A stretch of DNA of 64,000 bases from Phycisphaerales bacterium JB060 (GCA_044440025.1 JBITAF010000033.1:702-64701), one strand, 5' to 3'. Positions 7,269 to 62,094 are shown, numbered from the stretch's first letter. Program-made: numbers and translations. Notes: generated by a model from the sequence alone, not told the origin.

Positions 7269-8156
7269 TTAGCAGCCCGTGGCGAAGGCGTTCTGGAAGG
7301 TCAAGAAGTCGAAGATGGTGAGCCGGCCGTCGCCGTCCAGGTCGGCCCGGCGATCGCCGGCGTCGAAGGCGTTCTGAAAAGCCAGGAAGTCGAAGATGTC
7401 CAGCACGCTGTTGCCGTCGAAATCGGCGATGCATTGCATGGCGCCAAGGCCTTGCGGTGCATCGGCGGTGCTGGCACGGAGCGACATGGCGCCGGTGGCG
7501 ATGTCGATCTCCCAGAGCCGGCGGCCGTTCTCGGTCATGACCAGATCGCCGCCGGCCTCAAAGGCGATGCTGCCCGGCGCGCTGCCTGCGATGCCCATGC
7601 TCAGCCCGACGGTGGCGACCACCGCGCCTGAACTGGCGTCGATCTTCAGCAGGTCGGGAATCGTGCCCGGTCCGCTCGAGGTGATGCCGTAGAAAAAGCC
7701 GTCGCGGCGGTTGTAGTCCAGGCCGAAGAGCCGCGGGAGAGCTGGGCCGCCGAGCGAAGTGGTCATTCCGGTCGTGGTGCTGACGATCGCCAGCGAGCTA
7801 TCGGGTGCGATGCCAAAGAGCTGGCCACCGGGCCCGAAGCTGATCGATGCGAACACGTTCCCGCCGATGTGTACGGCCAGGCCCGTGGCGGGATCGACGC
7901 GGCTGAGCCCCTCGTCGCCCGCGGGGCTGTTGTTGATGACGAAGATGTCGCCCCTGCCATTCACGGCCATGCTGATCGGCGTGGTGTAGCGCGCGGGGTC
8001 TGGGTTCAGAGGGCCGATGGTGGTGACCGTGGCGCCGGTGGCGGTGTCGAAGATGTACAGGCTGTCGGTGCTGGAATCGACGGCGTACATGCGGTCGGCT
8101 GAGGCTGTGGTGGCCAGTCCGGCCAGGGTCAGGATGGTCAGCGAGGTGCGAAGCAT
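7269..8156 (-). CDS. Secreted beta-propeller-like protein with a C-terminal GC-type dockerin domain
   Basis: Signal peptide MLRTSLTILTLAGLATTASA. Two EF-hand-like repeats (DFDGNSVLDIFDFLAFQNAFDAG and DLDGDGRLTIFDFLTFQNAFATGC), ending in Gly-Cys. Confidence 0.85.
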   Translation of the reverse strand: MLRTSLTILTLAGLATTASADRMYAVDSSTDSLYIFDTATGATVTTIGPLNPDPARYTTPISMAVNGRGDIFVINNSPAGDEGLSRVDPATGLAVHIGGNVFASISFGPGGQLFGIAPDSSLAIVSTTTGMTTSLGGPALPRLFGLDYNRRDGFFYGITSSGPGTIPDLLKIDASSGAVVATVGLSMGIAGSAPGSIAFEAGGDLVMTENGRRLWEIDIATGAMSLRASTADAPQGLGAMQCIADFDGNSVLDIFDFLAFQNAFDAGDRRADLDGDGRLTIFDFLTFQNAFATGC

Positions 8157-45280: not shown

Positions 45281-45459
45281 CAGGCCCCCTTTGACCATCC
45301 CAAAGCCGATGCGATCCACCCCCCACACCGTACTACGCCCTGCCACGCTTCGGGTTGCATGCCGGTTTCCCAGACGCCGGCCTCCACCCTATTGAGACTC
45401 CGTCTCAACACGATACCATGTGCTTCGATTTTTCCATGCACCAAGGAGCCGCCCCGCCT

Positions 45460-46419
45460 ATGCCCCTCCGAGCAGCCCTCCCCGCGTTCTGTGCCGCCCT
45501 TGCCCTTATCTTCCTGGCCGCGTGCGAGGAACAAGCCGATCCCGCGGCCACTCCCAGCACTTCCACCACCTCGACCCAGCAGGCCACTCCCCGGGATCCA
45601 CAGCCCGCGAGCGAGACGGCCGACACCCCCCGCGTGGCCGCCCTGTTGCCCTTCGCCGCCGACCAGCTCATCGCCCTGGGCGTCCAGCCCGTCCTCGTCC
45701 CCGCCCTCCGCGGCGGGCAGCCCGAGGCCTGGCAGGGCATCGAGACGGGCGCCCTCGACCATTCGGTGGGCCCCAATCTCGAGCAGCTCATCGCCGCCGA
45801 CCCCGACGTGGTCATCATGAGCGCCGTCTACACCCAGTTCGTGCCCCAGATCGAATCGACCACCGACGCCCGCATCATCACCATGGACGCCGACACGCTC
45901 GAAGACGTCCGCACCCACACGCGCACCATCGGCGAACTTGTCGGTAAGCCCGACCAGGCCGACGCATGGATCGCCGACTTCAACGCGCAAATGGCCTCCA
46001 GCGAACCCGTCGAATCCGCCGGCGACCCCATCAGCGTGCTGGCCGTACTTGGCTCACCGCAGTCCTTCTATGCCTTCCTCCCCGACAGCTACATGGGCGA
46101 CCTGGTCGAGACCGCCGGCGGGCGACTCATTACCAGCGACATGACCGGCCATCGCTTCTATCGCGGTATGGCTCCGTTGAGCATGGAAGCCGTCGTGCAG
46201 AAGGACCCCGATGTGATCCTGGTGGTGTTCCACGGCCCCGAGCGCGCGGCCCGCGCATTGTTCGATCGTGATCCGCTGTGGGGGGAACTGACCGCCATCA
46301 AGGACGACCACATCGCCTTCCTGTCCGAAGACCTCTTCGCCATGCGCGCGGGCTCGCAGGCCGCAACCGCGCTCGAGAACGTTCGCACCGCCATCGAGAA
46401 CGCCAAGCCCAGCCCCTGA
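45460..46419 (+). CDS. ABC transporter substrate-binding lipoprotein (FecB/BtuF-like, iron-chelate or cobalamin class)
   Basis: AAGGAG at 45443-45448, then ATG 45460. Lipobox LIFLAAC. Periplasmic binding fold blocks VAALLPFAADQLIALGV and PDVVIM. Confidence 0.8.
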   Translation: MPLRAALPAFCAALALIFLAACEEQADPAATPSTSTTSTQQATPRDPQPASETADTPRVAALLPFAADQLIALGVQPVLVPALRGGQPEAWQGIETGALDHSVGPNLEQLIAADPDVVIMSAVYTQFVPQIESTTDARIITMDADTLEDVRTHTRTIGELVGKPDQADAWIADFNAQMASSEPVESAGDPISVLAVLGSPQSFYAFLPDSYMGDLVETAGGRLITSDMTGHRFYRGMAPLSMEAVVQKDPDVILVVFHGPERAARALFDRDPLWGELTAIKDDHIAFLSEDLFAMRAGSQAATALENVRTAIENAKPSP

Positions 46420-46426
46420 ACGACGA

Positions 46427-47476
46427 ATGACCACCCTTTCGGCGGGCCAGCAAGCGACGATCACCCCCGCCACGCGGCCCGCGTGGCGTCGCTTCGTGAC
46501 GCCCGCCGCCATCGTGCTCATCCTCGTGCTTGGGCTCGCCCTATCGCTCGCGCTCGGAGCCGTCCGCATCCCGCTGGCCGACGTCGTCGCCACGCTCACC
46601 GGCTCGGGCGAGGGCACGAGCGAACGCATCATCATGAACGCCCGCCTGCCGCGAGCACTGGTCGCATTGCTGGCCGGCGCCAACCTCGCCGTCGCCGGCG
46701 TGCTGCTCCAGGGCGTCACACGCAACCCCCTCGCAGACCCGGGCATCATCGGCGTGACTGCTGGCGCGGGTGTCAGCGCCACCGTCGTGCTGGCGGCATT
46801 CCCAGGCGCCGCCCACGCCCTGCCCCTGGCCGCCTTCCTGGGCGCCATGGCCTCGGCCGTCTTCGTCTACGCCGTAAGCTGGACGCCCGGCGGCGCGGGC
46901 AAGGGTGGCACGAGCCCCGTCCGCATGGTCCTCGCGGGCGTGGCCGTCAACGCCATCCTCGGCGCCGTCATCGGCGTGCTCATCACCGCGTTCGCCGACC
47001 GCATCCCCGCCGTCATGTTCTGGACCGCCGGCTCCTTCAACGGCCGCGGCTGGAGCCACCTCTGGATGGTGCTGCCCTACTCCATCGTGGGCCTCACGAT
47101 CGCGTTCCTCCTCCGCTCACGCGTGCGCATCCTCGAACTGGGCGATGACACCGCCAGCACCATGGGCATCTCGGTCGAACGAACGCGCCTGCTCGCCTTC
47201 GCCGCCGCCGCCCTGCTTGCCGGCTCGGCCGCCAGCGTTGCCGGCCTGGTCGGCTTCGTCGGCCTGGTGGTTCCCCACCTGGTCCGCCTGGCCATGGGCT
47301 CCAACCGCCTGATCGTGCCCGTCAGCGCCTTCGCCGGCGGCGCATTGCTCTTGTGGGCCGACCTCGCCGCCCGTACCGTGCTCGCTCCGAGCGAGTTGCC
47401 CGTGGGCGTCGTCACCGGCCTCGTCGGCGGCCCGTACTTCATCTTTTTGCTCTACAAATCCGGGTGGCTGCGATGA
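46427..47476 (+). CDS. FecCD-family ABC permease
   Basis: ARLPRALVALLAGANLAVAGVLLQGVTRNPLADPGIIG and 9-10 TM segments. Confidence 0.9.
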   Translation: MTTLSAGQQATITPATRPAWRRFVTPAAIVLILVLGLALSLALGAVRIPLADVVATLTGSGEGTSERIIMNARLPRALVALLAGANLAVAGVLLQGVTRNPLADPGIIGVTAGAGVSATVVLAAFPGAAHALPLAAFLGAMASAVFVYAVSWTPGGAGKGGTSPVRMVLAGVAVNAILGAVIGVLITAFADRIPAVMFWTAGSFNGRGWSHLWMVLPYSIVGLTIAFLLRSRVRILELGDDTASTMGISVERTRLLAFAAAALLAGSAASVAGLVGFVGLVVPHLVRLAMGSNRLIVPVSAFAGGALLLWADLAARTVLAPSELPVGVVTGLVGGPYFIFLLYKSGWLR

Positions 47477-48333
47477 CACTCCAGGCCCACGACCTCGCGA
47501 TCGACCTCCCGCCCCGCCGCGTGCTTGCCGGCGTGAACGTCACGATCGAGCCGGGGGAGATGGTCGCCATCGTCGGTCCCAACGGCTCGGGCAAGTCCAC
47601 GCTCCTGCGCGCCCTGGCGGGCCTGCTCCGCCCCGCCGCTGGCAGCGTCACGCTCGACGCCAAACCCCTGCACCGCTACCCCAAGCGCGCCCTGGCCCGC
47701 CGCCGCGGCCGGCTCGCCCAATCGGCCGACCTCCCCCAGCTCACGACCGTGCGCGAACACGTGGCCATGGGCCGCCACGCCCACGCCAGCGCCCTCAGCG
47801 CCCTCTTCAAGTCGGGAGACCAGCAGGCCCATATCGCCGCCATCGACACCGCCATGGACCGCTGCGGCATCGCCCACCTGGCCGACCGCCGCATGGAGGC
47901 CCTCTCCGGCGGCGAGCGCCAACGCGTCCGCCTGGCCACCACACTCGCCCAGGAGCCCGCCGTCCTCATGCTCGACGAGCCGCTGACGGGCCTGGACATC
48001 GAGCACCAGCTCAGCCTGCTCGACCTGCTCAAGGAACTCAACACCGCCACCGGCGTCACCGTCATCTGCGTCATCCACGAACTGGGCTTGGCCCTGCGGC
48101 ACTTCCCCCGCATCCTGGCCGTCCACGACGGCGGTATCGCGGCGGATGGCACGGGCCGCCAGGTCATGACCACCCCCACCCTCCGCACCGTCTTCGGCGT
48201 CGAGGGCTGCGCCTGCTACGACCTGCCCGACCACCCCGTGGTCGTCTGCAAGAGCCCTGGAGACTGCGCTGCCGGTCGCGAACTGCCCCAGGTCATAACC
48301 CCTAGCCTCGACCGCCAGCCAATCACCCGATAA
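47473..48333 (+). CDS. ABC transporter ATP-binding protein (FecE-like)
   Basis: GPNGSGKSTLL, LSGGERQRV and LMLDEP. The ATG overlaps the permease stop (ATGA). Confidence 0.9.
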   Translation: MTLQAHDLAIDLPPRRVLAGVNVTIEPGEMVAIVGPNGSGKSTLLRALAGLLRPAAGSVTLDAKPLHRYPKRALARRRGRLAQSADLPQLTTVREHVAMGRHAHASALSALFKSGDQQAHIAAIDTAMDRCGIAHLADRRMEALSGGERQRVRLATTLAQEPAVLMLDEPLTGLDIEHQLSLLDLLKELNTATGVTVICVIHELGLALRHFPRILAVHDGGIAADGTGRQVMTTPTLRTVFGVEGCACYDLPDHPVVVCKSPGDCAAGRELPQVITPSLDRQPITR

Positions 48334-48418: not shown

Positions 48419-49549
48419 ATGGCACCCCAGAATACCAACCAAGCCGTCGCTCACAGCGAGAACAAGAGCCAGCCCAAGGCCGCCCAGGCCAGCAGCGGAC
48501 GCCAGCCCTTCAAGCTCACGGCCCTGCACCCCAGAGCCGGCAAGGCGTCGTCGGCCGGCATCGCCCCAAACCTGCTGGGCGAGCTCGCCGGCCTGGTGCC
48601 CGGCAGCCTCACGAGCGGCTACGGCCCGGACCTTGGCATGCTCCCCAAGGCCAAGCCCGAGCAGCCCCAGCGGGACAAGCCGGCAACGCCCAGCCAGAAG
48701 CGCAAGTCCAAGGCCAGCACCGAGAGCAAGCCCCAGCCCGCCAAGCGCATGACCGCCGAAGAGGCCCGCGCCTTCCTCATGGGCTCCCAGGCCCCCGCCG
48801 GCGCCAACCCCGAGCCCCGGCCCATGCGCACCCCGCCCATTCCCAAGAGCATCCGCGACCTGCGCCTGCCAGGCTTCACCAGCGTCTACGAGCTGCTCCC
48901 AGACGAGCCGCGACTGTTCGCCCTCGAGTCGGTCTACGGCCGGTGGGACGGCAAGATCCTCGTCCTCGACTCGGCGCCCACCCACGTCCAGGTCGTCAAG
49001 GCCCGACTGGAGCGCAAGACCCTGCGTCCGTACTGCCAGCACGAGACCCCAGCCACCTACGGGCTGGCCCGCCTGGCCTTTCCCCTGGCCAGCCGCGGCG
49101 TGCTCGCGGGCACCGTCTACGGCCCGCTGCTGGTCAACTCCAACGGCCGCGACGACCTGCGTGCCAAGCGAGACGAGCACCGCAAGGCCGTCGCGCCCAC
49201 CCTGCGATTCGTCATCAAGAACATGCCCAACGTCAAGGCCGTGGTCTGCCTGGGCGTCACCGCGTATGAGTTTGTGCTGCACGCCATGACCGGCAAGGTC
49301 AGCAAGCCCGACACGCTCCCCCGCTGGCCCCAGGACTTCGACGCCACCGAGCCCGTGCGACCCATCTTCGGCGGGCCCACCGTCTTCCTCACCTGCCGCA
49401 CCTCGCCCGACGCCATCCACCGCCGCGGCGGGGAGACCAAGGCCGTCGAAGACTGGCAGGCCGTCGCCGACCACCTGGCCCACCAGGAACGCCCCCGCGC
49501 CCTCAAGAGCCTGGGCCGGGGCAAGGTCATCCGCGACGAAGCGGCCTAG
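48419..49549 (+). CDS. Hypothetical protein: disordered Lys/Pro-rich N-terminal half plus a UDG-superfamily-like C-terminal domain with degenerate motifs; paralog of the next gene
   Basis: Residues from PPIPKSIRDLRLPGFTSVYELLPDEPRLFALES align with the start of the next ORF. The motif positions read VLDSAP and CRTSPDA. Confidence 0.55.
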   Translation: MAPQNTNQAVAHSENKSQPKAAQASSGRQPFKLTALHPRAGKASSAGIAPNLLGELAGLVPGSLTSGYGPDLGMLPKAKPEQPQRDKPATPSQKRKSKASTESKPQPAKRMTAEEARAFLMGSQAPAGANPEPRPMRTPPIPKSIRDLRLPGFTSVYELLPDEPRLFALESVYGRWDGKILVLDSAPTHVQVVKARLERKTLRPYCQHETPATYGLARLAFPLASRGVLAGTVYGPLLVNSNGRDDLRAKRDEHRKAVAPTLRFVIKNMPNVKAVVCLGVTAYEFVLHAMTGKVSKPDTLPRWPQDFDATEPVRPIFGGPTVFLTCRTSPDAIHRRGGETKAVEDWQAVADHLAHQERPRALKSLGRGKVIRDEAA

Positions 49550-49604: not shown

Positions 49605-50243
49605 ATGAGCACCACGCCGCCAATCCCGGAAACGATTCGGAACCTGAGGGTGGATGGCTACACCAACGTCTACGAACTTGTACCAGACGCAACACGGCTC
49701 TTTGGCACCGAATCGCTCTTTGGAGACTGGCAATCGCCGGTGTTGCTGCTTGCTCAAGACTTTGCCAACTCAAGCTTTATCCGCAGGCGGATCGAAACGA
49801 ATCACCACGATCCCTACAGCCACGATTGCATGCTGCGCACCAACAAGAACCTGTATCGACTTGCGCGCGATGTCGTAACTGACGGTGCCCTATACGGGTC
49901 GGCTTTGGGTCCAATGCTCAAAGACACCGATGGCATGAGCACCTCACTTCCCAATCGAAAAAAAGCCTTTCAAGCCGCATCAGTAATCCTGCGATTCACG
50001 ATCAGGAACATGCCGAATCTCCGTACCATCGTCTGCATGGGCGGTGTCGCGTGTTCATCGATCCAACACACGTTCTTTCCGACCAGCTCGCACGCGTTGC
50101 CATTCAAGCCGGGCCAAGCACCAATACCACTCCCAGGGAGTGACATACTCGTCTTCACGACCTTTCATCCGGCGGCCCGGGTGAGCACGGAACGCGCTCA
50201 TGAAGCCTGGCGCGCTATCGCCCGTACCTCCCGGGCGGGCTGA
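49605..50243 (+). CDS. Uracil-DNA glycosylase superfamily-like protein (atypical motif A)
   Basis: Order of blocks resembles family-4-type UDGs: VLLLAQDFAN (motif A position), LYGSALGPML, TIVCMGGVA, VFTTFHPAARV (HPAA-type motif B). The segment is visibly lower in GC. Confidence 0.55.
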   Translation: MSTTPPIPETIRNLRVDGYTNVYELVPDATRLFGTESLFGDWQSPVLLLAQDFANSSFIRRRIETNHHDPYSHDCMLRTNKNLYRLARDVVTDGALYGSALGPMLKDTDGMSTSLPNRKKAFQAASVILRFTIRNMPNLRTIVCMGGVACSSIQHTFFPTSSHALPFKPGQAPIPLPGSDILVFTTFHPAARVSTERAHEAWRAIARTSRAG

Positions 50244-50277: not shown

Positions 50278-51147
50278 CTAATCCCCAATCCCTATCTTCC
50301 GCGTCACGCTCACCGCCGGATACAACCCCGACACCCGTTCCCTGGGCTCGACCCGCGCCCGGTGCCGGGGGTTCAGCGGCTGGAGCCGGATCAACTCCTC
50401 GCCGTCGCCCGACCGCTCGAAGTACACCCGCTTGAACGTCGTCTCGCTATCGGGCTCGATCAGCCTCGCGAAGCAGTCCATCCCGTCGCGCACCTCGCGC
50501 CCGGGGCTGAAGATCACCACGTCGCCCTCGCGGTACGTTGGCTCCATGCTGTCCCCGGTAATGCGCGCGGCGAACGCGTCGGGGTCGCCAAGCTCGGGCG
50601 CCGCCACGTAGCTGTCGGCCACACGAGCCGGATACCCAAGATCGGTGAACTCGGCCGCCTGCCCCGCCGGCACCAGGTTAATCAGCGGCACCGCCCGCGG
50701 CAGCAGCGCCTCGACCTTCTCGCCCTCGCCCGATGTCCCCCCCTGGGGCGCGATGCGATCCACCAGCCGCGCCAGCACGCCAGACTCGAACGCCCGATCG
50801 AGCCCGCCAGGCCCGGCCGCTCGCAGCATGGCCGCGAGCTGCCGGGCCGCCTGCCCCTGCTCGCGCCGCTCGGCCAGCTCCTCGCGCACCACCGCGGGCG
50901 TGCTCTGCATCGCCAGCATCTCGCGCAGGGAGCCCGGCTCCATCTCCAGCGCCCGCTCAAGCCCGGCCAGCACACGCTCGGTCGGCGCCCCCCGCTTGCC
51001 GCGCTCCAGCAGCGAGAGGTACCCCTTCGTGCACCCCGCCCGCTCGGCCGTTTCGCGCAAACTCAGGCCCAGCCGCAGCCGGCGATCCCGCAGGCGTTCG
51101 CCGAACCCGCTCGCCGAATCATCATTGCTGATGTCCGCTCCGGACAT
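50278..51147 (-). CDS. CI/LexA-like repressor: XRE-family HTH plus S24 peptidase domain
   Basis: HTH region LSLRETAERAGCTKGYLSLLERG. S24 serine motif ITGDSMEP and lysine region TFKRV. GGAGGGAG RBS before ATG 51147. Confidence 0.85.
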   Translation of the reverse strand: MSGADISNDDSASGFGERLRDRRLRLGLSLRETAERAGCTKGYLSLLERGKRGAPTERVLAGLERALEMEPGSLREMLAMQSTPAVVREELAERREQGQAARQLAAMLRAAGPGGLDRAFESGVLARLVDRIAPQGGTSGEGEKVEALLPRAVPLINLVPAGQAAEFTDLGYPARVADSYVAAPELGDPDAFAARITGDSMEPTYREGDVVIFSPGREVRDGMDCFARLIEPDSETTFKRVYFERSGDGEELIRLQPLNPRHRARVEPRERVSGLYPAVSVTRKIGIGD

Positions 51148-51202
51148 GGCCCGCTCCCTCCGATACCCGCCGTAGGCGTCCCAATGGCGGTTTCTGCGTT
51201 CC

Positions 51203-51299
51203 ATCGCCACCGAACTGCGCAATCTGGTGGCGATACCAAACATTAGCCTTGCATTTGTTTGCAATCCAGTCGACAATAGGGCGTCAGTATCCTGGATTG
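51203..51299. promoter_or_regulatory. Divergent control region with three inverted repeats (candidate operators)
   Basis: ATCGCCACC(51203-11)/GGTGGCGAT(51226-34). TTGCA(51249-53)/TGCAA(51260-64). CAATCCAG(51262-69)/CTGGATTG(51292-99). GGAG RBS at 51307-51310. Confidence 0.4.
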
Positions 51300-51319
51300 A
51301 GTAAACGGAGCGCAACGCC

Positions 51320-51757
51320 ATGCAGACAAGACTGGACGACGCCGCCCTGGATATGCGCAGAAAGCAGCGACGGGCCCTGGTCACCCGCGTGCTGGACGCC
51401 GCCGACCACCTGCCCCCGGAAGAACGCCAGCTTCTCATCGCAATCTACGGCCGCGGCATGGCTGTCAGCGAGGCCGCCGCCATGCTGGGAACCCCCGAGC
51501 GCCAGCTCCGCCGACGCGTGCGGGCCCTGGTCCGCCGGGTGTGCGACCCCACGTTCGACGCCGCCGTCCGCCTGAGCCCGGACATGCCCCGCCAGCTCCG
51601 CCAGGTCGCCCAGCTCAAGGCCATCGAGGGCCTGCCCATGCGGCAGATCGCCCAAAGGCTGGGCGTGAGCTACCACACCGTTCGCAAGCACTACGACGCA
51701 TTCCGCGCCCTGATCGAGGCCGCCGGCTCGCGCTCCACGCCCGGGAGTGCCGCGTGA
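51320..51757 (+). CDS. DNA-binding protein with two tandem sigma-70 region-4-like HTH units (candidate small terminase or late activator)
   Basis: LPPEERQLLIAIYGRGMAVSEAAAMLGTPERQLRRRV and LRQVAQLKAIEGLPMRQIAQRLGVSYHTVRKH. Confidence 0.7.
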   Translation: MQTRLDDAALDMRRKQRRALVTRVLDAADHLPPEERQLLIAIYGRGMAVSEAAAMLGTPERQLRRRVRALVRRVCDPTFDAAVRLSPDMPRQLRQVAQLKAIEGLPMRQIAQRLGVSYHTVRKHYDAFRALIEAAGSRSTPGSAA

Positions 51758-52452
51758 ACGCCCGCGTCGCCCACGCCCGCGCCCTGTTCGCCCTGCCCGT
51801 GGGCAGCGCCGAGCCCTGCCGCCGCAGCGCCCTGCGCGCCGCCCGCGATTCCGCCCGCTCGCTCGCGCAGCTCGAGCCCGGCCAGATCGCCCTGCTCACC
51901 GGCCCCAGCGGCAGCGGAAAGAGCACCGCCATCGCGATGCTCCGCCGCCGGCTTGCGCGCATGGGACGCACCATTGTCCGCCCGCCCGCGCACCTGTCCA
52001 GTCGCCGGCCCACCATCGAGCACGTGGGCGATAACCTCGACCAGGCACTTGGACTGCTCGGCGCCGCCGGCCTGGCCGAGGCATCCCTGCTCGTGCGTCC
52101 GGCCGGCCGACTGAGCACCGGCCAGCTCGCGCGCCTGACCATCGCCGCTGCCATGGACCGCTGCACGCCCGGCTGCGTGCTCATCGTCGACGAGTTCGCC
52201 GCCACGCTCGATGCGCCCACCGCCCACTCGATGGCCCACGCTCTGGCGCGCTGGTGCCGACGCAAGCGCATCACGCTGGTTGCCTGCAGCGCTCGAGAAG
52301 ACACGCTCGAAGCGCTCGCGCCCGACCTGCTCGTCGTCCTGCCCCTGCCCGGCGATCGCCCGTCGCCGCCCCTCGTCATCACCCGCGCCCCCGCGGAGCC
52401 ATGCCGTGGCACACGCCTCGCTCGTCCGCCGATTCCGCGTCCTGCGCACTGA
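51754..52452 (+). CDS. Soluble ABC-type ATPase (no permease partner)
   Basis: Walker A LLTGPSGSGKST, signature-like LSTGQLARL, and Walker B CVLIVDEFAATLD. The GTG start overlaps the upstream stop (GTGA at 51754-51757). Confidence 0.7.
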   Translation: MNARVAHARALFALPVGSAEPCRRSALRAARDSARSLAQLEPGQIALLTGPSGSGKSTAIAMLRRRLARMGRTIVRPPAHLSSRRPTIEHVGDNLDQALGLLGAAGLAEASLLVRPAGRLSTGQLARLTIAAAMDRCTPGCVLIVDEFAATLDAPTAHSMAHALARWCRRKRITLVACSAREDTLEALAPDLLVVLPLPGDRPSPPLVITRAPAEPCRGTRLARPPIPRPAH

Positions 52453-53080
52453 CCCCATCACCATCGAAACCGGCACGTATGACGACCTTCGCGCGCTGTC
52501 GCGCTACCACTACGTGGCCGGTCGGCCCGGGCCCATCACCCGTATCCTGCGCGCGAGCGCCGGCGGCGAGACCGTGGGCGTGCTGGCCGCGTCGATGCCG
52601 ACCCTCAACGGTCGGTGGCGCAGCATCGCCTGGCCGGGCGACTACGACACGCCCGACAAGCGCGCCAACGCCCTGCGCCTCAACCACGACGTCCGCGTGA
52701 TCTCGCGCGTCATCGTCGACCCGCGGTACCGCGGCCGCGGCGTCGCTGTCCGGCTCGTGCGCGCGTACCTGGACGCCCCGTGCACCGAGCGCACCGAAGC
52801 CCTGGCCGCCATGGCCCACGCGTGCCCCTTCTTCGAGCGAGCCGGCATGGAGCGGATCGACCTGCCGCCGAGCAAGGCCGACGCAAAGCTGCTGCGCGCC
52901 ATGGCCCGCCACGGCGTCGAGCCGGCCGACCTGCTCGCGAGCCTGCCCGCGGCGATCACCCCGAGCCTGCGCGCGTGGGCCGGGGCCCGAAAGCTCCGCG
53001 GCGGCGACATCGCCGCGCGGGCATTTGCGCTGCTCACCCACCCACCCGTCGCCCACGTGCACAAACGGAGCCAGCCGTGA
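52406..53080 (+). CDS. GNAT-fold acetyltransferase-like protein
   Basis: Acetyl-CoA motif VIVDPRYRGRGVAVRLV. The start is tentatively GTG 52406, a 47-nt overlap with the ATPase gene. Confidence 0.6.
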   Translation: MAHASLVRRFRVLRTDPITIETGTYDDLRALSRYHYVAGRPGPITRILRASAGGETVGVLAASMPTLNGRWRSIAWPGDYDTPDKRANALRLNHDVRVISRVIVDPRYRGRGVAVRLVRAYLDAPCTERTEALAAMAHACPFFERAGMERIDLPPSKADAKLLRAMARHGVEPADLLASLPAAITPSLRAWAGARKLRGGDIAARAFALLTHPPVAHVHKRSQP

Positions 53081-54525
53081 CGCCGCTGCCGGCGCGGCCG
53101 GCGACGATCGAAGAATTGGCCGCCTGCGTTCGCGCGGCCCTGGACGTGCGCCTGAGCGACAAGCCGCTGGCGTACCTCGCGCACGCGTTCTTTGCCGACC
53201 ACATGCCCGATGCGCTCGGCAACACCGCCGACGACCCGATCGACGCCGTCGTGTGGGCCAACCGCGGGGGCGGCAAAACGTTCCTGGGCGCCGTCGCCAC
53301 GCTGCTCGACCTGGTGTACAAGCCCGGCATCGAGGTGCGCATCCTGGGCGGCTCGCTCGAGCAGGCCCAGCGCATGCACGCGCACCTGCGGCATCTCATC
53401 CGGCGCCCGGCCGTGAGCGACCTGGTCGAGGGACGCGTGACCGATCGACGGGTCGAGCTGATCAACGGGTCGAGGCTCGAGCTGCTCGCCCAATCGCAGG
53501 CGTCGGTCCGTGGCACGCGCATCCAGAAGCTGCGCTGCGACGAGGTCGAGCTGTTCGACCCGGCCGTGTGGGAGGCCGCCCAGCTCACCACGCGCAGCAA
53601 GACCGTCGAGTACGACGGCAAGCCATACACCATCCGCGGCTCCATCGAGGCGCTCAGCACGATGCACCGCTCGCACGGCCTCATGCGCGACGTGGTCGAC
53701 CAGGCCAACGCGGGCACGCGGCGGCTGTTCAAGTGGGGCGTGGTCGACGTGCTCGATCGCTGCGATGAGCAGTATCAGTGCGACGGCTGCCCGCTGTGGA
53801 ACGAGTGCCAGGGCTCGGCCAAGCGCGACGACCGACCGGCGGGGCACCTGTCGATCGCCGACGCGATCTCGCTGAAGGGGCGTGTATCGCTGAGCACGTG
53901 GGACGCCGAGATGCGCTGCGAGCGGCCCAAGAGCGACGACGCCGTGCTGCCCGAGTTCGATCGGGCCGTGCACGTGCGCGAGATACCGGACATCGACGAA
54001 GACTGGCAATGGGTGCTGGGCATGGACTTCGGGTATCGCTCGCCGACGGTGATCGTGTGGGGCGCGCTCAGCCCCGAGGGCATGCTGCACATCGTGCGCG
54101 AGCGCGTGGCGAGCCGGTGCCTGCTGGCCGAGCACATCGACGCGATGCTTGAAGACGAGTCGCAGAAGCCGAGCTGGATCGGCATCGACCCCGCCGGCTG
54201 GCAGGGCAACGCGCAGACGGGCCTCAGCGACGCCCAGCAGATCCAACGCGCGGGCCTGAGCGTGCGCGCCCGGCGCACCACCATCCGCGCCGGGCTCGAC
54301 CTGCTGCGCGCCCGCTTGCGCCCGGCGACCGGCGAGCCCACGCTGTTCATCTCCCCCGACTGCCCGCACCTGATCGAGAGCCTGGAGCGTTACCACTACG
54401 ACATGCAGCGGCCGATGAGCGAGGAGCCGGCCAAGGACGGCCCCGACCACGCCGTCGATGCGCTGCGATACCTGGTGACGAACCTGGATCGGCCCGGGGC
54501 GCTGAAGGCGGGGAGTTACTTGTGA
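53077..54525 (+). CDS. Phage terminase large subunit
   Basis: Walker A WANRGGGKTF and Walker B LRCDEVE. Nuclease acidic residues GMDFGY, GIDPAG and DHAVDALRY. The GTG overlaps the GNAT stop (GTGA at 53077-53080). The track ORF extends spuriously to 52615. Confidence 0.85.
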   Translation: MTPLPARPATIEELAACVRAALDVRLSDKPLAYLAHAFFADHMPDALGNTADDPIDAVVWANRGGGKTFLGAVATLLDLVYKPGIEVRILGGSLEQAQRMHAHLRHLIRRPAVSDLVEGRVTDRRVELINGSRLELLAQSQASVRGTRIQKLRCDEVELFDPAVWEAAQLTTRSKTVEYDGKPYTIRGSIEALSTMHRSHGLMRDVVDQANAGTRRLFKWGVVDVLDRCDEQYQCDGCPLWNECQGSAKRDDRPAGHLSIADAISLKGRVSLSTWDAEMRCERPKSDDAVLPEFDRAVHVREIPDIDEDWQWVLGMDFGYRSPTVIVWGALSPEGMLHIVRERVASRCLLAEHIDAMLEDESQKPSWIGIDPAGWQGNAQTGLSDAQQIQRAGLSVRARRTTIRAGLDLLRARLRPATGEPTLFISPDCPHLIESLERYHYDMQRPMSEEPAKDGPDHAVDALRYLVTNLDRPGALKAGSYL

Positions 54526-54543: not shown

Positions 54544-55437
54544 GTGCCCGCGAAACCAACAACCTGGCGCAAACGCCCGCGGCGCAAGCCTGTGGCCGAG
54601 TTCGTGTGCTGGAGCGACATCGGACGCAGCATGCGGTCGCGCCTGCTCTGTACGGGGCTCGCGGATTGGCACAAGGAGGGCGCCGCCCGGGTTCAAGCCA
54701 TCAGCCCGAAGCGGGGCCATTCGAACCCGCAGGCGAGTCGGGTGTTTCATCCCTGCAAGAAGTGCGGCGCGAAACGCATCGATCTCGTTGAACAGCCAGT
54801 CGACATCACGCTATTGGATCAGACGTATGGCGGCGACAAGCTTGACGCGAGCAAGCTGCGGAATCTTCGAGTCTCGATTCCATTGCAATGGCCCGTCGCG
54901 GTTGTGAGTCTACAAGCAATGGATGCACTGGCGCCTTACCTGGATGACGGATTCCTCATCGGCAACGTCCATCTGATCACGGGCGAGAAGCTGGGCGGCT
55001 TTCGCAGCATGCTCGATCGGAAGCACATACCGCACCGGACGAAATACACGAAGGAATGGTTCAAGTACTCTGGCAGCGCTCAGTTTGGACGATGTGGGCA
55101 CTGCGATCGATTGCGGTGTCACCTGACGATGGGCGGCACCTACATCCTTGAGCGCGAGATTCCCGGCACCGGCGTCCGGTTCGATGGGCTTGGCCTGACC
55201 GTGGAACGGGGCGTGGCCGAGAAGCTGGACTTGTTCAACAAGCGTTTGTGGCCGGGTGGGCAGTGGTACACCATCCCCGTGTTCGACGAGCGACTCGACC
55301 CCATCCCCGAGCCCTGGCCGCGCACCTGGAGCGAGTTGGCGCAAGGCGTGGCGCGCAACGGCGACTTTCCGTTCGACGAACTCGGCACGTGGACCGAGAA
55401 GCTGCGGCGGGATGTGGAGTCGCAGGAACCAGGTTGA
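54544..55437 (+). CDS. Hypothetical Cys-motif protein (CKKCG ... CGHCD), visibly lower-GC cargo-like gene
   Basis: 297 aa ORF directly after the terminase. Weak resemblance to double-CXXCG motif proteins. The N-terminal 30-60 aa and the start are uncertain. Confidence 0.5.
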   Translation: MPAKPTTWRKRPRRKPVAEFVCWSDIGRSMRSRLLCTGLADWHKEGAARVQAISPKRGHSNPQASRVFHPCKKCGAKRIDLVEQPVDITLLDQTYGGDKLDASKLRNLRVSIPLQWPVAVVSLQAMDALAPYLDDGFLIGNVHLITGEKLGGFRSMLDRKHIPHRTKYTKEWFKYSGSAQFGRCGHCDRLRCHLTMGGTYILEREIPGTGVRFDGLGLTVERGVAEKLDLFNKRLWPGGQWYTIPVFDERLDPIPEPWPRTWSELAQGVARNGDFPFDELGTWTEKLRRDVESQEPG

Positions 55438-55848: not shown

Positions 55849-56075
55849 TCCGGGCGCGCCCTGAAAGGCTTGGGCCGTGGCCCGAGCGATTCCGGGCGCG
55901 CCCTGGGAGGCTTGGGCCGTGGCCCGAACGGCTCCGGGCGCGCCCTGGGAGGCCTAGGCCGTGGCCCGAGCGGTTCCGGGCGCGCCCCGAGAGGCTTGGG
56001 CCACGGCCTGAGCGGTTTCGGGCGCGCCCTGAGAGGCTTGGGCCGCGCCCTGAGCGGTTCAGGCCGTGGCCCGCG
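55849..56075. repeat. Tandem array of a 42-bp unit, 5 full copies plus a partial copy, each with the palindrome GGGCGCGCCC
   Basis: Units at 55849, 55891, 55933, 55975 and 56017. Consensus TCCGGGCGCGCCCTGRGAGGCTTGGGCCGTGGCCCGAGCGGT. Lies in a divergent intergenic region. Confidence 0.9.
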
Positions 56076-59760: not shown

Positions 59761-59837
59761 ACGGATCGGGGTTGTCGATCTAGCCTGACGATGGCCGCGC
59801 GTGGCTGGCGGCACGAATCGAGCTCGAAGGGGAGGCC

Positions 59838-60359
59838 ATGTCGACGACGGCGGGCAACCGATCATCGCAGGATGGCCGCCGCGCGTGGCGGCGCGGCCTG
59901 CTGGCCCAGCTCGGTTTTCTGCCGATCGCCGTGGCGGTGGTCGTGGGCATGCTGGCGGGGATCGGGGCGTTCACCTTCGGGTACGGCGAGGGCTGGGCGT
60001 ACCTGTCCAACGATCCCGCCGCGTGCGCCAACTGCCACGTGATGCAGGACCACTACGACGCGTGGCAGCACTCCAGCCACCACGCCGTGGCCACGTGCAA
60101 CGACTGCCACCTGCCCCACGACTTCGTGGGCAAGTGGGTGACCAAGGCCGACAACGGTTTTTTTCACTCGCTGGCGTTCACCACCGGGGGGTTCCACGAG
60201 CCCATCCAGATCAAGCCTCGAAACGCGCGGGTGACCCAGGGCGCGTGCCTGCACTGCCATAGCGACTTCGTGCACACCATGCTGCCGGCCGAGGCGGGCG
60301 GCGACATGCTCTCGTGCGTGCGGTGCCACAGCGACGTGGGGCACGACGAGCGTGACTGA
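59838..60359 (+). CDS. nrfH: Tetraheme NapC/NirT-family quinol dehydrogenase NrfH
   Basis: N-terminal TM segment and four CXXCH motifs (CANCH, CNDCH, CLHCH, CVRCH). Confidence 0.9.
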   Translation: MSTTAGNRSSQDGRRAWRRGLLAQLGFLPIAVAVVVGMLAGIGAFTFGYGEGWAYLSNDPAACANCHVMQDHYDAWQHSSHHAVATCNDCHLPHDFVGKWVTKADNGFFHSLAFTTGGFHEPIQIKPRNARVTQGACLHCHSDFVHTMLPAEAGGDMLSCVRCHSDVGHDERD

Positions 60360-60411
60360 CCGTGACCGAGCAAAACCGAACACGACCGACCGTGACGAAC
60401 GGAGACACACC

Positions 60412-62094
60412 ATGAGCGACACCCAGCCAACCCAACCCGACGCCCGGCGGGTGCGCGCCCGCCGGTTCTTCCTGTTCGGCTCGGTGCTGGCGGCGTCGGC
60501 GGTGGCCATGTTCGTGGTCACCATCGTGCTGGTGACGATGTTCCAGCACAAGCAGGACGCGCGCACGCCGTTCATCCGCGTGGTGGAGGTCGACGAGGCC
60601 ACCACCGACCCCAGGCCCTGGGGGCTCAACTGGCCCCACCAGTACGACGGGTACATGCGCACGGCCGAGGGCGTGCAGCACGGCGGCTCGAGCGCGCTGG
60701 CGGCCAGCAAGCTGGAGGAGAGCCCCTGGCTGCGGCGGCTGTACGCGGGCTACGCCTTCAGCCTGGACTACCGCGAGGCCCGCGGGCACGCGTACATGCT
60801 GTACGACCAGACGGCCACCGAGCGGGTGACCAGGCGCCAGCAGAGCGGGGCGTGCCTGCACTGCCACGCGTCGAACACCGTGGCGTACCGTCGGGTGGGG
60901 CTGGAGGCGATGGGGCTGGACGCCTCCGACGAGGCGCTGGCGGCCGAGTTCAACATGCCCGCCGTCATCCGCGGGTTCGAGGAGGTCAGCCGCAGGCCCT
61001 ACCACGAGGTGCTGGCGATCCTGGCCCAGTCGCCCGATGGCACGCCCGACAACGACGCGCCGCTGCACCCGCGGCTGGACCAGCCCAATGAGTTGGAGAC
61101 GCCCGCGGGGCACATCGACCTGGGCAACGCCCACCCGGTGAGCTGCATCGATTGCCACGACCCGCAGACGATGGCCATCCGCGTGACGCGGCCGGGGTTC
61201 ATGCAGGGCATTGGCGCGCTGGCGGCCAGCGACGAGCCGGTGCCGCACATGCCCAGCATCGACCGCTGGCGCCAGGGGAGCCGCGACGAGCCGTACGACC
61301 CCAACGCCCTGGCCACGCGGCAGGAGATGCGCTCGTTCGTGTGCGGGCAGTGCCACGTGGAGTACTACTGCGCCGACAAGATGACGCTGACCTTCCCCTG
61401 GGGCAACGGCCTGAGGGTCGAGCAGATCGAGCGGTTCTGGGACGAGACGACCTTCCCCGATGATGGCGCGGGCTTCTACGACTACGCCCACGGCGAGACC
61501 GGGGCGAAGCTGTACAAGGCCCAGCACCCCGAGTTCGAGCTGTGGGCCCAGGGCGTCCACGCGGCCAACGGGGTGAGCTGCGCCGACTGCCACATGCCCT
61601 ACGAGCGCCAGGGCGCGATGAAGGCCAGCAGCCACCACGTGCAGAGCCCGCTGCTGAATGTCAACAACGCGTGCCAGCAGTGCCACAACATCCCCGAAAG
61701 CGAGATCATCGCCAACGTGCGGACGATCCAGGACCGCACGGTGGCGCTCATGGAGCGGGCCGCGGGCGCGATGACCGACATGCTCGACGCGGTGATGGAG
61801 GCCAAGGCCGCCGGCGCGACCGAGGAGCAGCTCGCGCCGGTGTACGAGATGCAGCGCAAGGCGATGTGGCGGCTGGACTACATCTCCAGCGAGAACAGCA
61901 AGGGCTTCCACGCCAGCCAGGAGGCCGCCCGCATCCTGGGCGAGAGCATCGACTACAGCCGCCGGGCCCAGGCCATGGCCCTGCGGCTGCGGGCCCCCGA
62001 GGCCCCCAGCACCGAGGGCATCCCCACCGAGGGCGTGCAGGGCGTGACGCCCGCGGGCGAGGCGCCGATCGAGGGGGCGGTGGAGCCGGGGTGA
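60412..62094 (+). CDS. nrfA: Pentaheme cytochrome c nitrite reductase NrfA (all five motifs CXXCH)
   Basis: CLHCH, CIDCH, CGQCHVEYY, CADCH and CQQCH, plus KAQHPEFELW. GGAGA RBS before ATG 60412. Confidence 0.9.
   Translation: MSDTQPTQPDARRVRARRFFLFGSVLAASAVAMFVVTIVLVTMFQHKQDARTPFIRVVEVDEATTDPRPWGLNWPHQYDGYMRTAEGVQHGGSSALAASKLEESPWLRRLYAGYAFSLDYREARGHAYMLYDQTATERVTRRQQSGACLHCHASNTVAYRRVGLEAMGLDASDEALAAEFNMPAVIRGFEEVSRRPYHEVLAILAQSPDGTPDNDAPLHPRLDQPNELETPAGHIDLGNAHPVSCIDCHDPQTMAIRVTRPGFMQGIGALAASDEPVPHMPSIDRWRQGSRDEPYDPNALATRQEMRSFVCGQCHVEYYCADKMTLTFPWGNGLRVEQIERFWDETTFPDDGAGFYDYAHGETGAKLYKAQHPEFELWAQGVHAANGVSCADCHMPYERQGAMKASSHHVQSPLLNVNNACQQCHNIPESEIIANVRTIQDRTVALMERAAGAMTDMLDAVMEAKAAGATEEQLAPVYEMQRKAMWRLDYISSENSKGFHASQEAARILGESIDYSRRAQAMALRLRAPEAPSTEGIPTEGVQGVTPAGEAPIEGAVEPG

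Follow-up and report, generated by a model that had tools for sequence, protein, structure and literature searches.

In SSU5-like phage-plasmids (Klebsiella pJN2-26, Salmonella SSU5), Rhizobium RHEph10-like and Pseudomonas nickie-like phages, genes for an ABC-type ATPase and a GNAT-type protein lie upstream of the large terminase gene (TerL) in the fixed order ParB-ParB-ABC-GNAT-DNA-binding-TerL-portal. The module is preceded by a helicase gene (-), begins with ParB, ParB/MTase and the ABC ATPase, and runs on through a small gene, a GNAT-type 'ABC transporter ATP-binding subunit', a second small gene and the DNA-binding protein to TerL and the portal. Gene transfer agents (GTAs) of the RcGTA type descend from phages, are passed on vertically throughout a large clade, evolve under purifying selection and are regulated by host stress. 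Where a GNAT is coupled with an ABC ATPase, acylation of a DNA base is the predicted activity (PMC7824862, section 3.4.7, citing Iyer et al. 2013); that section presents the system as a prediction only, never assayed, with Tenacibaculum phage pT24 as the example. There is also a precedent for a co-opted phage S24 repressor that governs a divergent unit (PMC13148647).

The locus analysed here lies in a 64-kb stretch of Phycisphaerales DNA, referred to as the window. The ATPase and GNAT genes next to TerL had been taken for an undescribed arrangement, which they are not, the pair being known upstream of TerL and portal in the three phage groups above. What is unusual about the locus is a divergent XRE-S24 repressor, together with its predicted operator, and vertical conservation throughout the order. 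We consider it probable that the five genes represent a domesticated, repressor-controlled remnant of the immunity and packaging-initiation segment of a temperate phage, which has become chromosomally fixed in the Phycisphaerales (Planctomycetota).

Operon layout and divergent control region

The features of the locus are as follows (coordinates are those of the window).

50278..51147, minus strand: putative self-cleaving repressor (LexA/CI-like) of 289 aa, XRE-HTH plus Peptidase_S24 (Pfam HTH_31/HTH_3, Peptidase_S24)
51148..51319, no strand: divergent control region with dyad, promoter-like block and Shine-Dalgarno sequence
51198-51215, control region: GTTC-N10-GAAC dyad, candidate operator
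51249-51254 and 51272-51277, control region: promoter-like TTGCAT and GACAAT, 17 nt apart
51307-51310, control region: GGAG Shine-Dalgarno sequence
51320..51757, plus strand: HTH protein of 145 aa with two sigma-70 region-4-like units, first gene of the operon
51754..52452, plus strand: soluble ABC-type ATPase of 232 aa (ABC_tran), homologue of phage 'ABC transporter' proteins
52406..53080, plus strand: predicted GNAT-fold acyltransferase of 224 aa (Acetyltransf_10/_1), partner of the ATPase
53077..54525, plus strand: full-length TerL of 482 aa, ATPase plus RNase H-like nuclease (Terminase_6C, phrog_2)

The four plus-strand ORFs are present at these coordinates. The identities given to them in the earlier note were all correct (Pfam, phrog, motif and fold matches), and its single overlap-linked four-gene operon is borne out by the ORF coordinates and by the overlaps themselves. 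Direct reading of the sequence places the HTH stop and the ATPase start in the GTGA at 51754-51757, and the GNAT stop and the TerL start in the GTGA at 53077-53080. Between them, the ATPase and GNAT genes overlap by 47 nt, from the GTG start of GNAT at 52406 to the TGA stop of the ATPase at 52450-52452; this early GNAT start is supported by an N-terminal helix (xxSLVRRF) that is conserved in distant orthologues. Each of the four start codons is preceded by GGAG at a distance of 6-9 nt, third-position GC in the claimed frames is 0.86-0.93, and neither a promoter nor a terminator was detected in the interior of the operon. Start/stop overlaps of 4 nt are commonplace in bacterial operons and those seen here are not kept in distant orthologues, the GNAT-TerL gap measuring 86 nt in Tepidisphaera (L001) and the HTH-ABC gap 90 nt in L002. 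The overlaps therefore mark the genes as members of one operon that are probably coupled in translation. They do not show a fixed stoichiometry, and the 'stoichiometric co-expression' previously read into them went too far. Judged from the genomes compared, conservation of the gene order over more than 70 of them is a feature far beyond chance.

The divergent XRE-S24 repressor gene had gone unmentioned in the earlier note, as had the order-wide conservation. Its start was placed at the ATG at 51147, with GGAGGGAG just before. The gene adjoins the operon in 71 loci, and the cleavage site Ala161-Gly162 together with Ser200 and Lys239 is kept in 65-68 of 71 orthologues. The predicted operator has the consensus tGTTCaC-N6-GTGAACa, which is found exactly in 41 of the 72 orthologous intergenic regions and with one mismatch in 13 more; with 54 of 72 divergent regions carrying the dyad with at most one mismatch, most orthologues have kept this predicted palindromic operator in their divergent promoter. 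When 1.34 Mb were scanned, 41 of 47 occurrences of the dyad fell in the 21.7 kb that these intergenic regions make up. The remaining six lie in ~1.3 Mb of flanking sequence, and none of them is obviously placed at a structural gene cluster. The only GTTC-N10-GAAC of the window is the one at 51198-51215; the six closest relatives have not kept it and have the promoter-like block in common instead. Since the subclade to which the window belongs does not conserve the consensus operator, the site used by the repressor here is uncertain.

Proteins encoded by the operon

TerL has the two-domain fold of a large terminase, with an N-terminal ASCE ATPase and a C-terminal RNase H-like nuclease. The top Foldseek match of its AF2 model (pLDDT 85.6) was the full-length TerL of phage D6E (TMq 0.67/TMt 0.79, ~465 columns), followed by T4 gp17, HK97 and Sf6. 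Walker A (G64-G-G-K67-T68), Walker B (D155-E156) and the nuclease residues D317, D371, D457 and D461 are invariant, as scored over 16-24 orthologues and also in phage relatives, and the nuclease Asp residues align to 5oe8. By alignment the enzyme is intact, as had been claimed. A Cys4 cluster (C229, C235, C238, C244) is invariant across Phycisphaerales and portal-linked phage relatives, and a conserved SVRG arginine before Walker B is likewise shared with the portal-linked cousins. TerL identity exceeds 50% across the order Phycisphaerales, with a dN/dS of 0.12-0.21.

The ATPase carries, in translation, the Walker A motif GPSGSGKST, the signature LSTGQ and the Walker B motif LIVDEF, all three kept in 68-71 of 71 orthologues. 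At the H-loop position, His is found in 47 of the 71 and Arg in the window, and ATP turnover of the window protein may therefore be slow. The protein (dN/dS 0.22-0.40) matches phrog_11143 and phrog_293, as well as genes of pT24 and of Nonlabens P12024S, and shares, over its full length, 28-35% identity with its ABC homologues in SSU5-like, RHEph10-like and nickie-like phages, a range of identity into which the ABC proteins of 24 IMG/VR contigs also fall. There is in addition a marginal Pfam match to NAT10_TcmA_helicase (E 0.009).

The GNAT protein matches phrog_886 (E 2e-13), is ~30% identical to gp0054 of pJN2-26 (E 6e-13) and has conserved the acyl-CoA-binding-type R-x-x-G-x-G/A motif as RYRGRGVA (dN/dS 0.16-0.33). 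Its AF2 model (pLDDT 91) retrieved GNAT folds from the PDB in Foldseek, generic matches only, among which TmcA (2zpa) ranked eighth. The ABC and GNAT genes are adjacent here and fused in P12024S and in the metagenomic phage contig L166 (JGI 3300054967 Ga0556622_001906); in L166, the GNAT half of this fusion is 37% identical to the window protein.

In the HTH protein, Sigma70_r4_2 and Sigma70_r4 (Pfam) each match two stretches, as does TIGR02937 (sigma70-ECF). Orthologues are found in 61 loci at E≤1e-5, with a dN/dS of 0.09-0.38, and the second unit resembles a sigma-r4 protein encoded at the same position in L166 (hhalign E 6e-5). The protein is not similar to the DNA-binding protein encoded before TerL in pJN2-26, and its match to phrog_7067 is a weak local one restricted to the HTH (E 6e-5, 24 residues). 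It had been proposed that the operon has no recognisable small terminase (TerS) and that the HTH protein and its neighbours take its place. The first part stands: a TerS family search gave no match in the operon. As to the second, the HTH protein shows neither a TerS family match nor a post-HTH oligomerisation domain and is best matched by sigma region 4. It is probably not a TerS substitute, given that in L166 the sigma-r4 gene sits upstream of ABC::GNAT and a different gene of 171 aa directly precedes TerL.

Distribution, phage relatives and descent

Nearly all of the ~80 Phycisphaerales genomes examined contain the five-gene cassette, with its order kept in ~70-80 loci, and TerL is encoded by at least 554 species representatives. 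The cassette is flanked by housekeeping genes (UvrC, an ABC importer, cytochrome c biogenesis and NrfHA in the window; UbiA, MarR, MetRS and DUF6677 in relatives), which vary between species yet are partly syntenic. The search for structural genes covered up to 10 kb from the cassette in 86 loci (1.47 Mb) as well as the 64-kb window, and yielded no portal, protease or capsid gene. Neither integrase, att site, flanking tRNA and replication genes nor TerS and ParB homologues were found in these loci and the window.

These data bear directly on the earlier framing of the locus as the packaging operon of a resident prophage, satellite or PICI-like element. All parts are phage-derived, and the repressor and operon layout resembles a prophage immunity region. 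However, the gene body of such an element, from integrase, att site and adjacent tRNA to replication and structural genes, is absent from the window and the 86 related loci, the same truncated gene set stands in differing housekeeping contexts in ~80 species, and purifying selection on it is strong, so that a resident prophage, satellite or PICI-like operon is highly improbable. It is scarcely credible that the cassette is a functionless, decaying prophage remnant with the ATPase and GNAT as unrelated morons. The structural genes have indeed been lost and ABC-GNAT is missing from two lineages, but dN/dS across all four operon genes (0.09-0.40) is in the range of purifying selection, the catalytic residues of TerL, ABC, GNAT and S24 are invariant over the entire order, TerL keeps its >50% identity over hundreds of species, and ABC-GNAT is linked with TerL in independent phage groups. 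Both readings are already contradicted, that of decay by the data on selection and conservation. The two lineages concerned (L033 and L061) keep S24-HTH-TerL without ABC-GNAT, which argues that the core function does not require the pair.

A search by gene order found ABC-GNAT together with TerL in ~78 Phycisphaerales loci and in several phage groups; as far as gene content and order can tell, the pair is functionally linked to TerL and does not consist of random morons. The TerL nuclease domain is 32% identical to that of the TerL in the SSU5/RHEph10/nickie-type module, and the TerLs of L166-type phages are 36-40% identical to the cassette TerL. The gene order of L166 is S24 ... sigma-r4, ABC::GNAT, ParB, 171-aa gene, TerL, portal, protease, capsid, and the only L166 proteins with homologues in the 1.47 Mb of Phycisphaerales loci are S24, ABC::GNAT and TerL. 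From its genes, L166 looks like the ancestral type of the cassette. Under the domestication that we favour, the ancestor would have been a temperate phage of this type, from which ParB, the small gene before TerL and all structural genes were lost. The gene identities, the homology to phage modules, the conservation of the genes and of their catalytic residues throughout the order, and the lack of structural genes within 10 kb can all be read directly from the sequences.

Possible cellular roles and comparison with known systems

That purifying selection maintains the cassette argues for its exaptation, and since it is intact in hundreds of species without nearby capsid genes, the bacteria probably use it. 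Candidate cellular roles are the packaging arm of a GTA, interference with phages and damage-induced DNA processing. In a possible course of events, the repressor would bind the dyad and keep the operon off until a RecA*-type signal of DNA damage or infection triggers Ala-Gly autocleavage and hence derepression. The HTH protein might then guide the system to DNA or activate further promoters, and a dimer of the ABC protein would spend ATP on loading or positioning the GNAT, which would acylate DNA or a protein partner with acyl-CoA as the donor. Finally, TerL would cut and translocate the DNA. We suggest, tentatively and with rather less than even confidence, that the Phycisphaerales have exapted a complete terminase motor-nuclease, usually with an ATP-dependent acyltransferase, under an SOS-like self-cleaving repressor and with no need for adjacent capsid genes, for use in a DNA-cutting and translocating response or as a GTA arm. 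If this is true, it would mean a capsid-independent response to damage or infection that cuts and translocates DNA or, alternatively, the command and packaging arm of a GTA of the Planctomycetota that is dispersed and yet to be discovered.

The cassette could, in its entirety, serve a GTA or other domesticated particle yet to be discovered as its arm for induction and packaging. The head and tail genes would lie at other chromosomal loci and be switched on by the sigma-r4 HTH protein, TerL packaging DNA into those capsids. Every feature of the portal-linked phage TerLs, the Cys4 cluster and the SVRG arginine among them, is retained in the cassette TerL, the order-wide conservation under purifying selection resembles the behaviour of GTAs, a sigma-like HTH protein as the first gene product could act on remote promoters, and an SOS-type control fits a stress-triggered release of particles. 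Nevertheless, we think this unlikely, as no portal, protease or capsid homologue was found within 10 kb in the 86 loci or in the 64-kb window and there are only six extra dyads in the flanks. To our knowledge, TerL adjoins the portal gene in every GTA described so far, and we found no report in the literature of a GTA in Planctomycetes.

Phage-derived parts are commonly recycled for defence. Upon infection or induction of a prophage, a host TerL, with ABC-GNAT, might compete for or poison the packaging of related L166-type phages, or degrade DNA, as anti-phage interference or abortive infection, with the repressor perhaps adding superinfection immunity. Phages related in TerL to the extent given above and with homologous S24 and ABC::GNAT do exist in GC-rich hosts, and in PADLOC-DB 2.0 the ATPase gave weak, partial matches to mad3 and PDC-M07A. 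These matches cover generic ABC motifs only, however, GNAT and TerL found no match in that database, no defence genes neighbour the cassette, and it occurs throughout the lineage at a single, partly syntenic locus, not patchily or in association with islands. A role in defence is accordingly quite doubtful.

The domesticated phage segment that we propose can be set beside several known systems. With RcGTA-type elements it would share, by analogy, phage descent, order-wide inheritance, purifying selection and a putative regulation by host stress; GTAs are nonetheless defined by a head-tail cluster with TerL adjoining the portal, and none was seen in the 86 loci and the window. TmcA/NAT10, in which a GNAT modifies a nucleobase at the expense of ATP (cytidine N4 acetylation in RNA), offers another analogy, with a helicase-type P-loop ATPase there and an ABC-type one here. 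Since the similarity of the GNAT to TmcA is no better than to generic GNATs, the parallel is one of analogy only. The predicted DNA-acylation system has the same pairing of GNAT and ABC domains, in fused as well as split forms; as described in the section cited it is phage-borne with ParB or helicase partners, whereas the pair here is chromosomal and goes together with TerL and an S24 repressor, without ParB. The known lineage-fixed S24 phage-type repressor resembles ours, as far as the sequence goes, in its self-contained divergent unit and in a palindromic operator, which is predicted for most orthologues of the cassette, within a divergent promoter; the cargo there consists of repair genes, while the putative cargo here is a terminase operon. 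The module of the SSU5-like, RHEph10-like and nickie-like phages has homologous ABC, GNAT and TerL genes in the same order on one strand. Only these phages have the two ParB-like genes, a TerS-like DNA-binding gene directly before TerL, the portal and the virion module, their TerLs are without the Cys4 cluster, and only the cassette has the sigma-r4 HTH as first gene and the divergent S24 repressor. L166 and its IMG/VR relatives combine XRE-S24, sigma-r4, a fused ABC and GNAT and a TerL of the Cys4 subtype with 36-39% identity in the same order as the cassette, to which L166 adds ParB, the 171-aa gene, a Mu-type portal and protease-like, decoration and major capsid proteins.

The operon and its products

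Four consecutive genes make up the operon:

51320-51757, + strand: HTH protein composed of two sigma-70 region-4 units
51754-52452, + strand: ABC-type ATPase with a Walker A motif, an LSTGQ signature and a DEF Walker B
52406-53080, + strand: GNAT, recognized by Pfam, an AF2 model and Foldseek
53077-54525, + strand: large terminase TerL, recognized by comparing its AF2 model with phage D6E TerL and by its invariant catalytic residues

All four ORFs lie where the earlier note had placed them, and reading of the sequence bore out the overlaps it described: GTGA at 51754-51757 and 53077-53080, and 47 nt between the GNAT start (GTG at 52406) and the ATPase stop (52450-52452). The genes form one operon, since in addition to these overlaps a GGAG is found 6-9 nt 5′ of each start codon, third-position GC is 0.86-0.93 in all the claimed frames, and a consensus scan detected neither promoter-like nor terminator-like sites on the + strand. 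The window is a chromosome segment with a GC content of 69%. The two sites that the scan did return are both on the - strand, within the HTH (51334-51347) and ATPase (51973-52000) genes, and show no excess over shuffled controls. Start/stop overlaps of this kind are ordinary in bacteria. Because those of the operon are absent from distant orthologues, they indicate coupling rather than fixed stoichiometry, and the stoichiometric co-expression previously read from them is not upheld.

The gene identities proposed earlier were confirmed. The TerL model (pLDDT 85.6) superposes over its full length on phage D6E TerL (TM 0.67/0.79), followed among structural matches by T4 gp17, HK97 and Sf6. No variation is seen in the Walker A Lys, the Walker B Asp-Glu or the nuclease aspartates, in agreement with the claim that the enzyme is catalytically intact; a Cys-x5-Cys-x2-Cys-x5-Cys cluster that lies between its domains is likewise invariant. 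For the GNAT, a Pfam match, an AF2 model with pLDDT 91 and GNAT folds in Foldseek agree, and the CoA-binding motif RYRGRGVA is conserved. A TmcA- or Mom-like nucleobase substrate gains no support, as the Foldseek matches are to generic GNATs and do not set TmcA and Mom apart. The HTH profile gave weak sigma-r4 and generic HTH matches in the PDB and no others; NCBIfam returned generic ABC, sigma and GNAT matches alone for the cassette proteins. At residue 181 of the ATPase ('CSAREDT', in the region of 52294) the window has Arg in place of the H-loop His, as do 12 other orthologues; His is retained by 47 of 71 orthologues and by all 23 viral homologues. This substitution may mean that the ATPase of the window subclade acts as an ATP-bound switch and not as a fast hydrolase.

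The divergent repressor and neighbouring genes

A gene absent from the earlier account lies directly upstream of the operon:

50278-51147, - strand, divergent: XRE-HTH plus Peptidase_S24 protein, from domain matches

The residues for self-cleavage (Ala-Gly site, Ser nucleophile, Lys base) are kept in 65-68 of 71 orthologues, which identifies the product as a predicted LexA/CI-type autocleaving repressor. The divergent regions contain a 20-bp palindrome (consensus tGTTCaC-N6-GTGAACa) centred ~100 nt upstream of the HTH start. Its GTTC-N10-GAAC core is exact in 41 of 72 loci and has one mismatch in 13 more, and 41 of the 47 occurrences of the core in 1.34 Mb fall within 21.7 kb of divergent intergenic regions. 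The single GTTC-N10-GAAC of the window (51198-51215) is inside the divergent region but is not kept in the six nearest relatives, which instead share a TTGCAT-17-GACAAT promoter-like block (51249-51277) and a GGAG leader. We rejected a TTGCA-N6-TGCAA palindrome at ~51250-51265 as a local operator, its right half not being conserved in four of the loci compared (L008-L011); the sequence is more likely to be a -35 element.

Further genes surround the repressor and operon:

48419-49549 and 49605-50243, + strand: paralogous pair with a common motif such as PIP(K/E)(S/T)IR(D/N)LR...VYEL(L/V)PD
54544-55437, + strand: ORF directly 3′ of TerL, GC 0.62, GC3 0.77, without a family match
45295-48333 and 59784-62094: importer (Peripla_BP_2 / FecCD / ABC_tran), and NapC/NirT-type NrfH with cytochrome c552 NrfA; ordinary chromosomal neighbours

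The paralogues, the second of which has a much lower GC content (0.57 versus 0.71), occur only in the closest relatives of the window and thus lie outside the cassette. They gave no Pfam, PHROG, NCBIfam or PDB match, and a UDG-like identity was dropped for want of support from any of the four. The ORF 3′ of TerL, which is lower in GC, has no conserved counterpart in relatives: in CP098402 its position is taken by a Tricorn/PD40-repeat gene. The ORF is probably a recent insertion. Further downstream, a 42-nt unit repeated five times with 87% matches (55849-56060) lies inside long overlapping ORFs of both strands and encodes Gly/Arg/Pro/Ser-rich 14-aa repeats; neither ORF has a family match.

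Conservation and chromosomal setting

Homologues number 259 for the GNAT and more than 2,489 for TerL; among the matches listed, those carrying a name are all Phycisphaerae or Planctomycetota, and many are on Mb-scale contigs. When one genome per GTDB species was scanned, at least 554 genomes had a TerL relative. The best 80 of these are titled Phycisphaerae or Planctomycetota with few exceptions, three being labelled 'Cyanobacteria bacterium CYA', 'bacterium NORP141' and 'uncultured bacterium'. By tblastn of the window proteins against the collected loci, TerL was found in 86, GNAT in 79, ABC in 78, S24 in 71 and HTH in 61, and the HTH-ATPase-GNAT-TerL order of the window recurs, always as S24(-) / HTH-ABC-GNAT-TerL. 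Two loci, L033 (1109-3194) and L061 (9429-11572), have S24-HTH-TerL with 170-300 nt from HTH to TerL, leaving no room for ABC-GNAT. The pair has been lost in these two lineages while the rest was kept, and is therefore accessory. In another locus (L048, 8358-9749) a phage ABC::GNAT fusion, that of contig L166, aligns as a single 493-aa HSP with 36% identity, which suggests that some orthologues encode ABC and GNAT as a fusion, or at least in the same reading frame.

The genes flanking the window cassette, conserved only in its closest relatives, include UvrC, a pilin-like gene, the Fe/B12-type ABC importer (whose ATPase is unrelated to that of the cassette), cytochrome c biogenesis and NrfH/NrfA; elsewhere UbiA, MarR, Met-tRNA synthetase and DUF6677 are recurrent neighbours. 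The sole tRNA of the window is 19 kb from the cassette. Comparing the four operon genes with six close relatives gave dN/dS values of 0.12-0.21 for TerL, 0.16-0.33 for GNAT, 0.22-0.40 for ABC and 0.09-0.38 for HTH. A terminase gene could belong to a resident prophage or be a functionless remnant of one, and both are contradicted by the context and the selection data. The same data contradict a satellite, for which a packaging-specificity switch had been suggested earlier: the flanks are housekeeping genes, homologues of structural genes are missing from the window and the related loci searched, and dN/dS is low.

Some viral contigs show other arrangements of the terminase. In about ten IMG/VR contigs (L090-L094, L099, L106, L116, L128, L129) the TerL relative is split into two same-strand ORFs, a nuclease-only ORF (~168 aa) lying 2-4 kb upstream of an ATPase-only ORF (~315 aa, with the Cys4 cluster), with ParB-like genes nearby (7514-8020 and 9797-10744 in L092). 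As the nuclease ORF comes first, the domain order is permuted, which neither an intron nor an intein would produce. In the viral-classed contig L088 (IMGVR_UViG_3300034175_000195, 561-2351) a GNAT is followed by a Phycisphaerales-type TerL-like ORF (35% and 50% identity) that stops just past the Cys cluster and so lacks the nuclease domain; truncation of the copy, a frameshift or the inclusion of host DNA from the edge of a prophage could each explain this.

Phage relatives and possible roles

A search of 50% clusters for more distant TerL relatives led to P0364 on L166, a 35-kb metagenomic contig of 70% GC that encodes, in order, XRE-S24, a sigma70_r4 protein (110 aa), an ABC::GNAT fusion (536 aa), ParB, a 171-aa ORF, TerL, a Mu-type portal, a protease-like protein, decoration and major capsid proteins. 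The fusion shares 33% identity with the ATPase of the window and 37% with its GNAT, and the TerLs are 36-39% identical. On L168, a second relative, TerL is followed by a portal; no portal could be identified in the viral contig L125. The Cys4 cluster and every catalytic residue of the window TerL recur in these portal-linked relatives. With every L166 protein as query, a search of the window and 1.47 Mb of Phycisphaerales loci found homologues for S24 (67 loci), ABC::GNAT (78) and TerL (86), and none for ParB, the 171-aa gene, portal, protease, decoration, capsid or the downstream genes. L166 is likely to represent the ancestor type of the cassette. By hhalign, its r4 protein is similar to the second of the two r4 units in the window HTH (E 6e-5, probability 65%). 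The HTH had been thought to stand in place of a small terminase; since in L166 the r4 gene precedes ABC::GNAT and the 171-aa gene adjoins TerL, a regulator or DNA-targeting factor is more likely.

The ATPase-GNAT pair had been regarded as undescribed in a packaging module. In PHROG, the GNAT matches phrog_886 and the ATPase phrog_11143 and phrog_293. By tblastn the ATPase finds 'ABC transporter' genes of SSU5-like phage-plasmids and of Rhizobium RHEph10-like, Pseudomonas nickie-like, Stenotrophomonas, Nonlabens and Tenacibaculum phages; among the matches listed, the TerL nuclease domain also finds SSU5-like phage-plasmids (Klebsiella, Salmonella). The GNAT gave no tblastn match to GenBank phages at 1e-3, and its phage link is seen only through PHROG profiles and the ATPase. 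The Klebsiella phage-plasmid pJN2-26, RHEph10 and nickie share a fixed order: helicase(-) / ParB, ParB/MTase, ABC ATPase, small ORF, GNAT-type, small ORF, DNA-binding, TerL, portal. Their ATPases are 28-30% identical to that of the window over the full length; pairwise, the GNAT is 30% identical to its counterpart (E 6e-13) and the TerL nuclease domain 32% (E 9e-12), and the window HTH shows no similarity to the DNA-binding protein upstream of TerL. IMG/VR holds 24 further contigs with ABC and then an adjacent GNAT. The pair is different in Nonlabens phage P12024S, where it is fused and lies in the replication module, away from TerL. According to section 3.4.7 of Iyer et al. (Viruses 2021, PMC7824862), a GNAT paired with an ABC ATPase had been predicted to place an uncharacterised acyl group on a DNA base; phage pT24 is the example given. 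From these modules and this prediction the pairing beside TerL is not new, its activity being a predicted one; nor are the two genes random morons without TerL co-occurrence.

The cassette is portal-less, phage-derived and repressor-linked, conserved order-wide and under purifying selection. In our model, the repressor would silence the operon until its autocleavage is triggered by a RecA*-type signal. The HTH protein would then target DNA or promoters, the ABC dimer might couple ATP to acyl transfer by the GNAT, with DNA or a partner protein as acceptor, and TerL would cut and translocate DNA. Three options lead for its role: a GTA-like system that is dispersed, its structural genes lying elsewhere; interference with phages or abortive infection; and a DNA-processing function induced by damage. 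PADLOC gave no convincing defence-system match for the cassette proteins.

Large terminases are held to be strictly viral or GTA packaging enzymes that act on a portal. A TerL that is catalytically intact, has no capsid genes close by, is more than 50% identical across hundreds of species of a single bacterial order and stands under a LexA-like switch would represent a rare long-term cellular domestication of a packaging motor. The cassette also offers a genetic handle on the predicted DNA-acylating ABC-ATPase and GNAT pair, which precedes the terminase in tractable phages, namely the SSU5-like phage-plasmids of Klebsiella, Salmonella and E. coli and Pseudomonas phage nickie. The literature searched yielded nothing on a terminase cassette in Phycisphaerae, a GTA in Planctomycetes or an orphan terminase under SOS control. 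Phages are known to carry the parts and to link ABC-GNAT with TerL; the chromosomal, capsid-less, S24-controlled, order-wide form was absent from the papers searched. A close precedent for an S24 repressor with divergent genes is the Francisella FddR protein, which was co-opted from a phage, binds a palindrome and regulates its own gene along with divergent ones (PMC13148647). The cassette would be the second example, after FddR, of a co-opted phage S24 repressor defining a self-contained damage-responsive unit.
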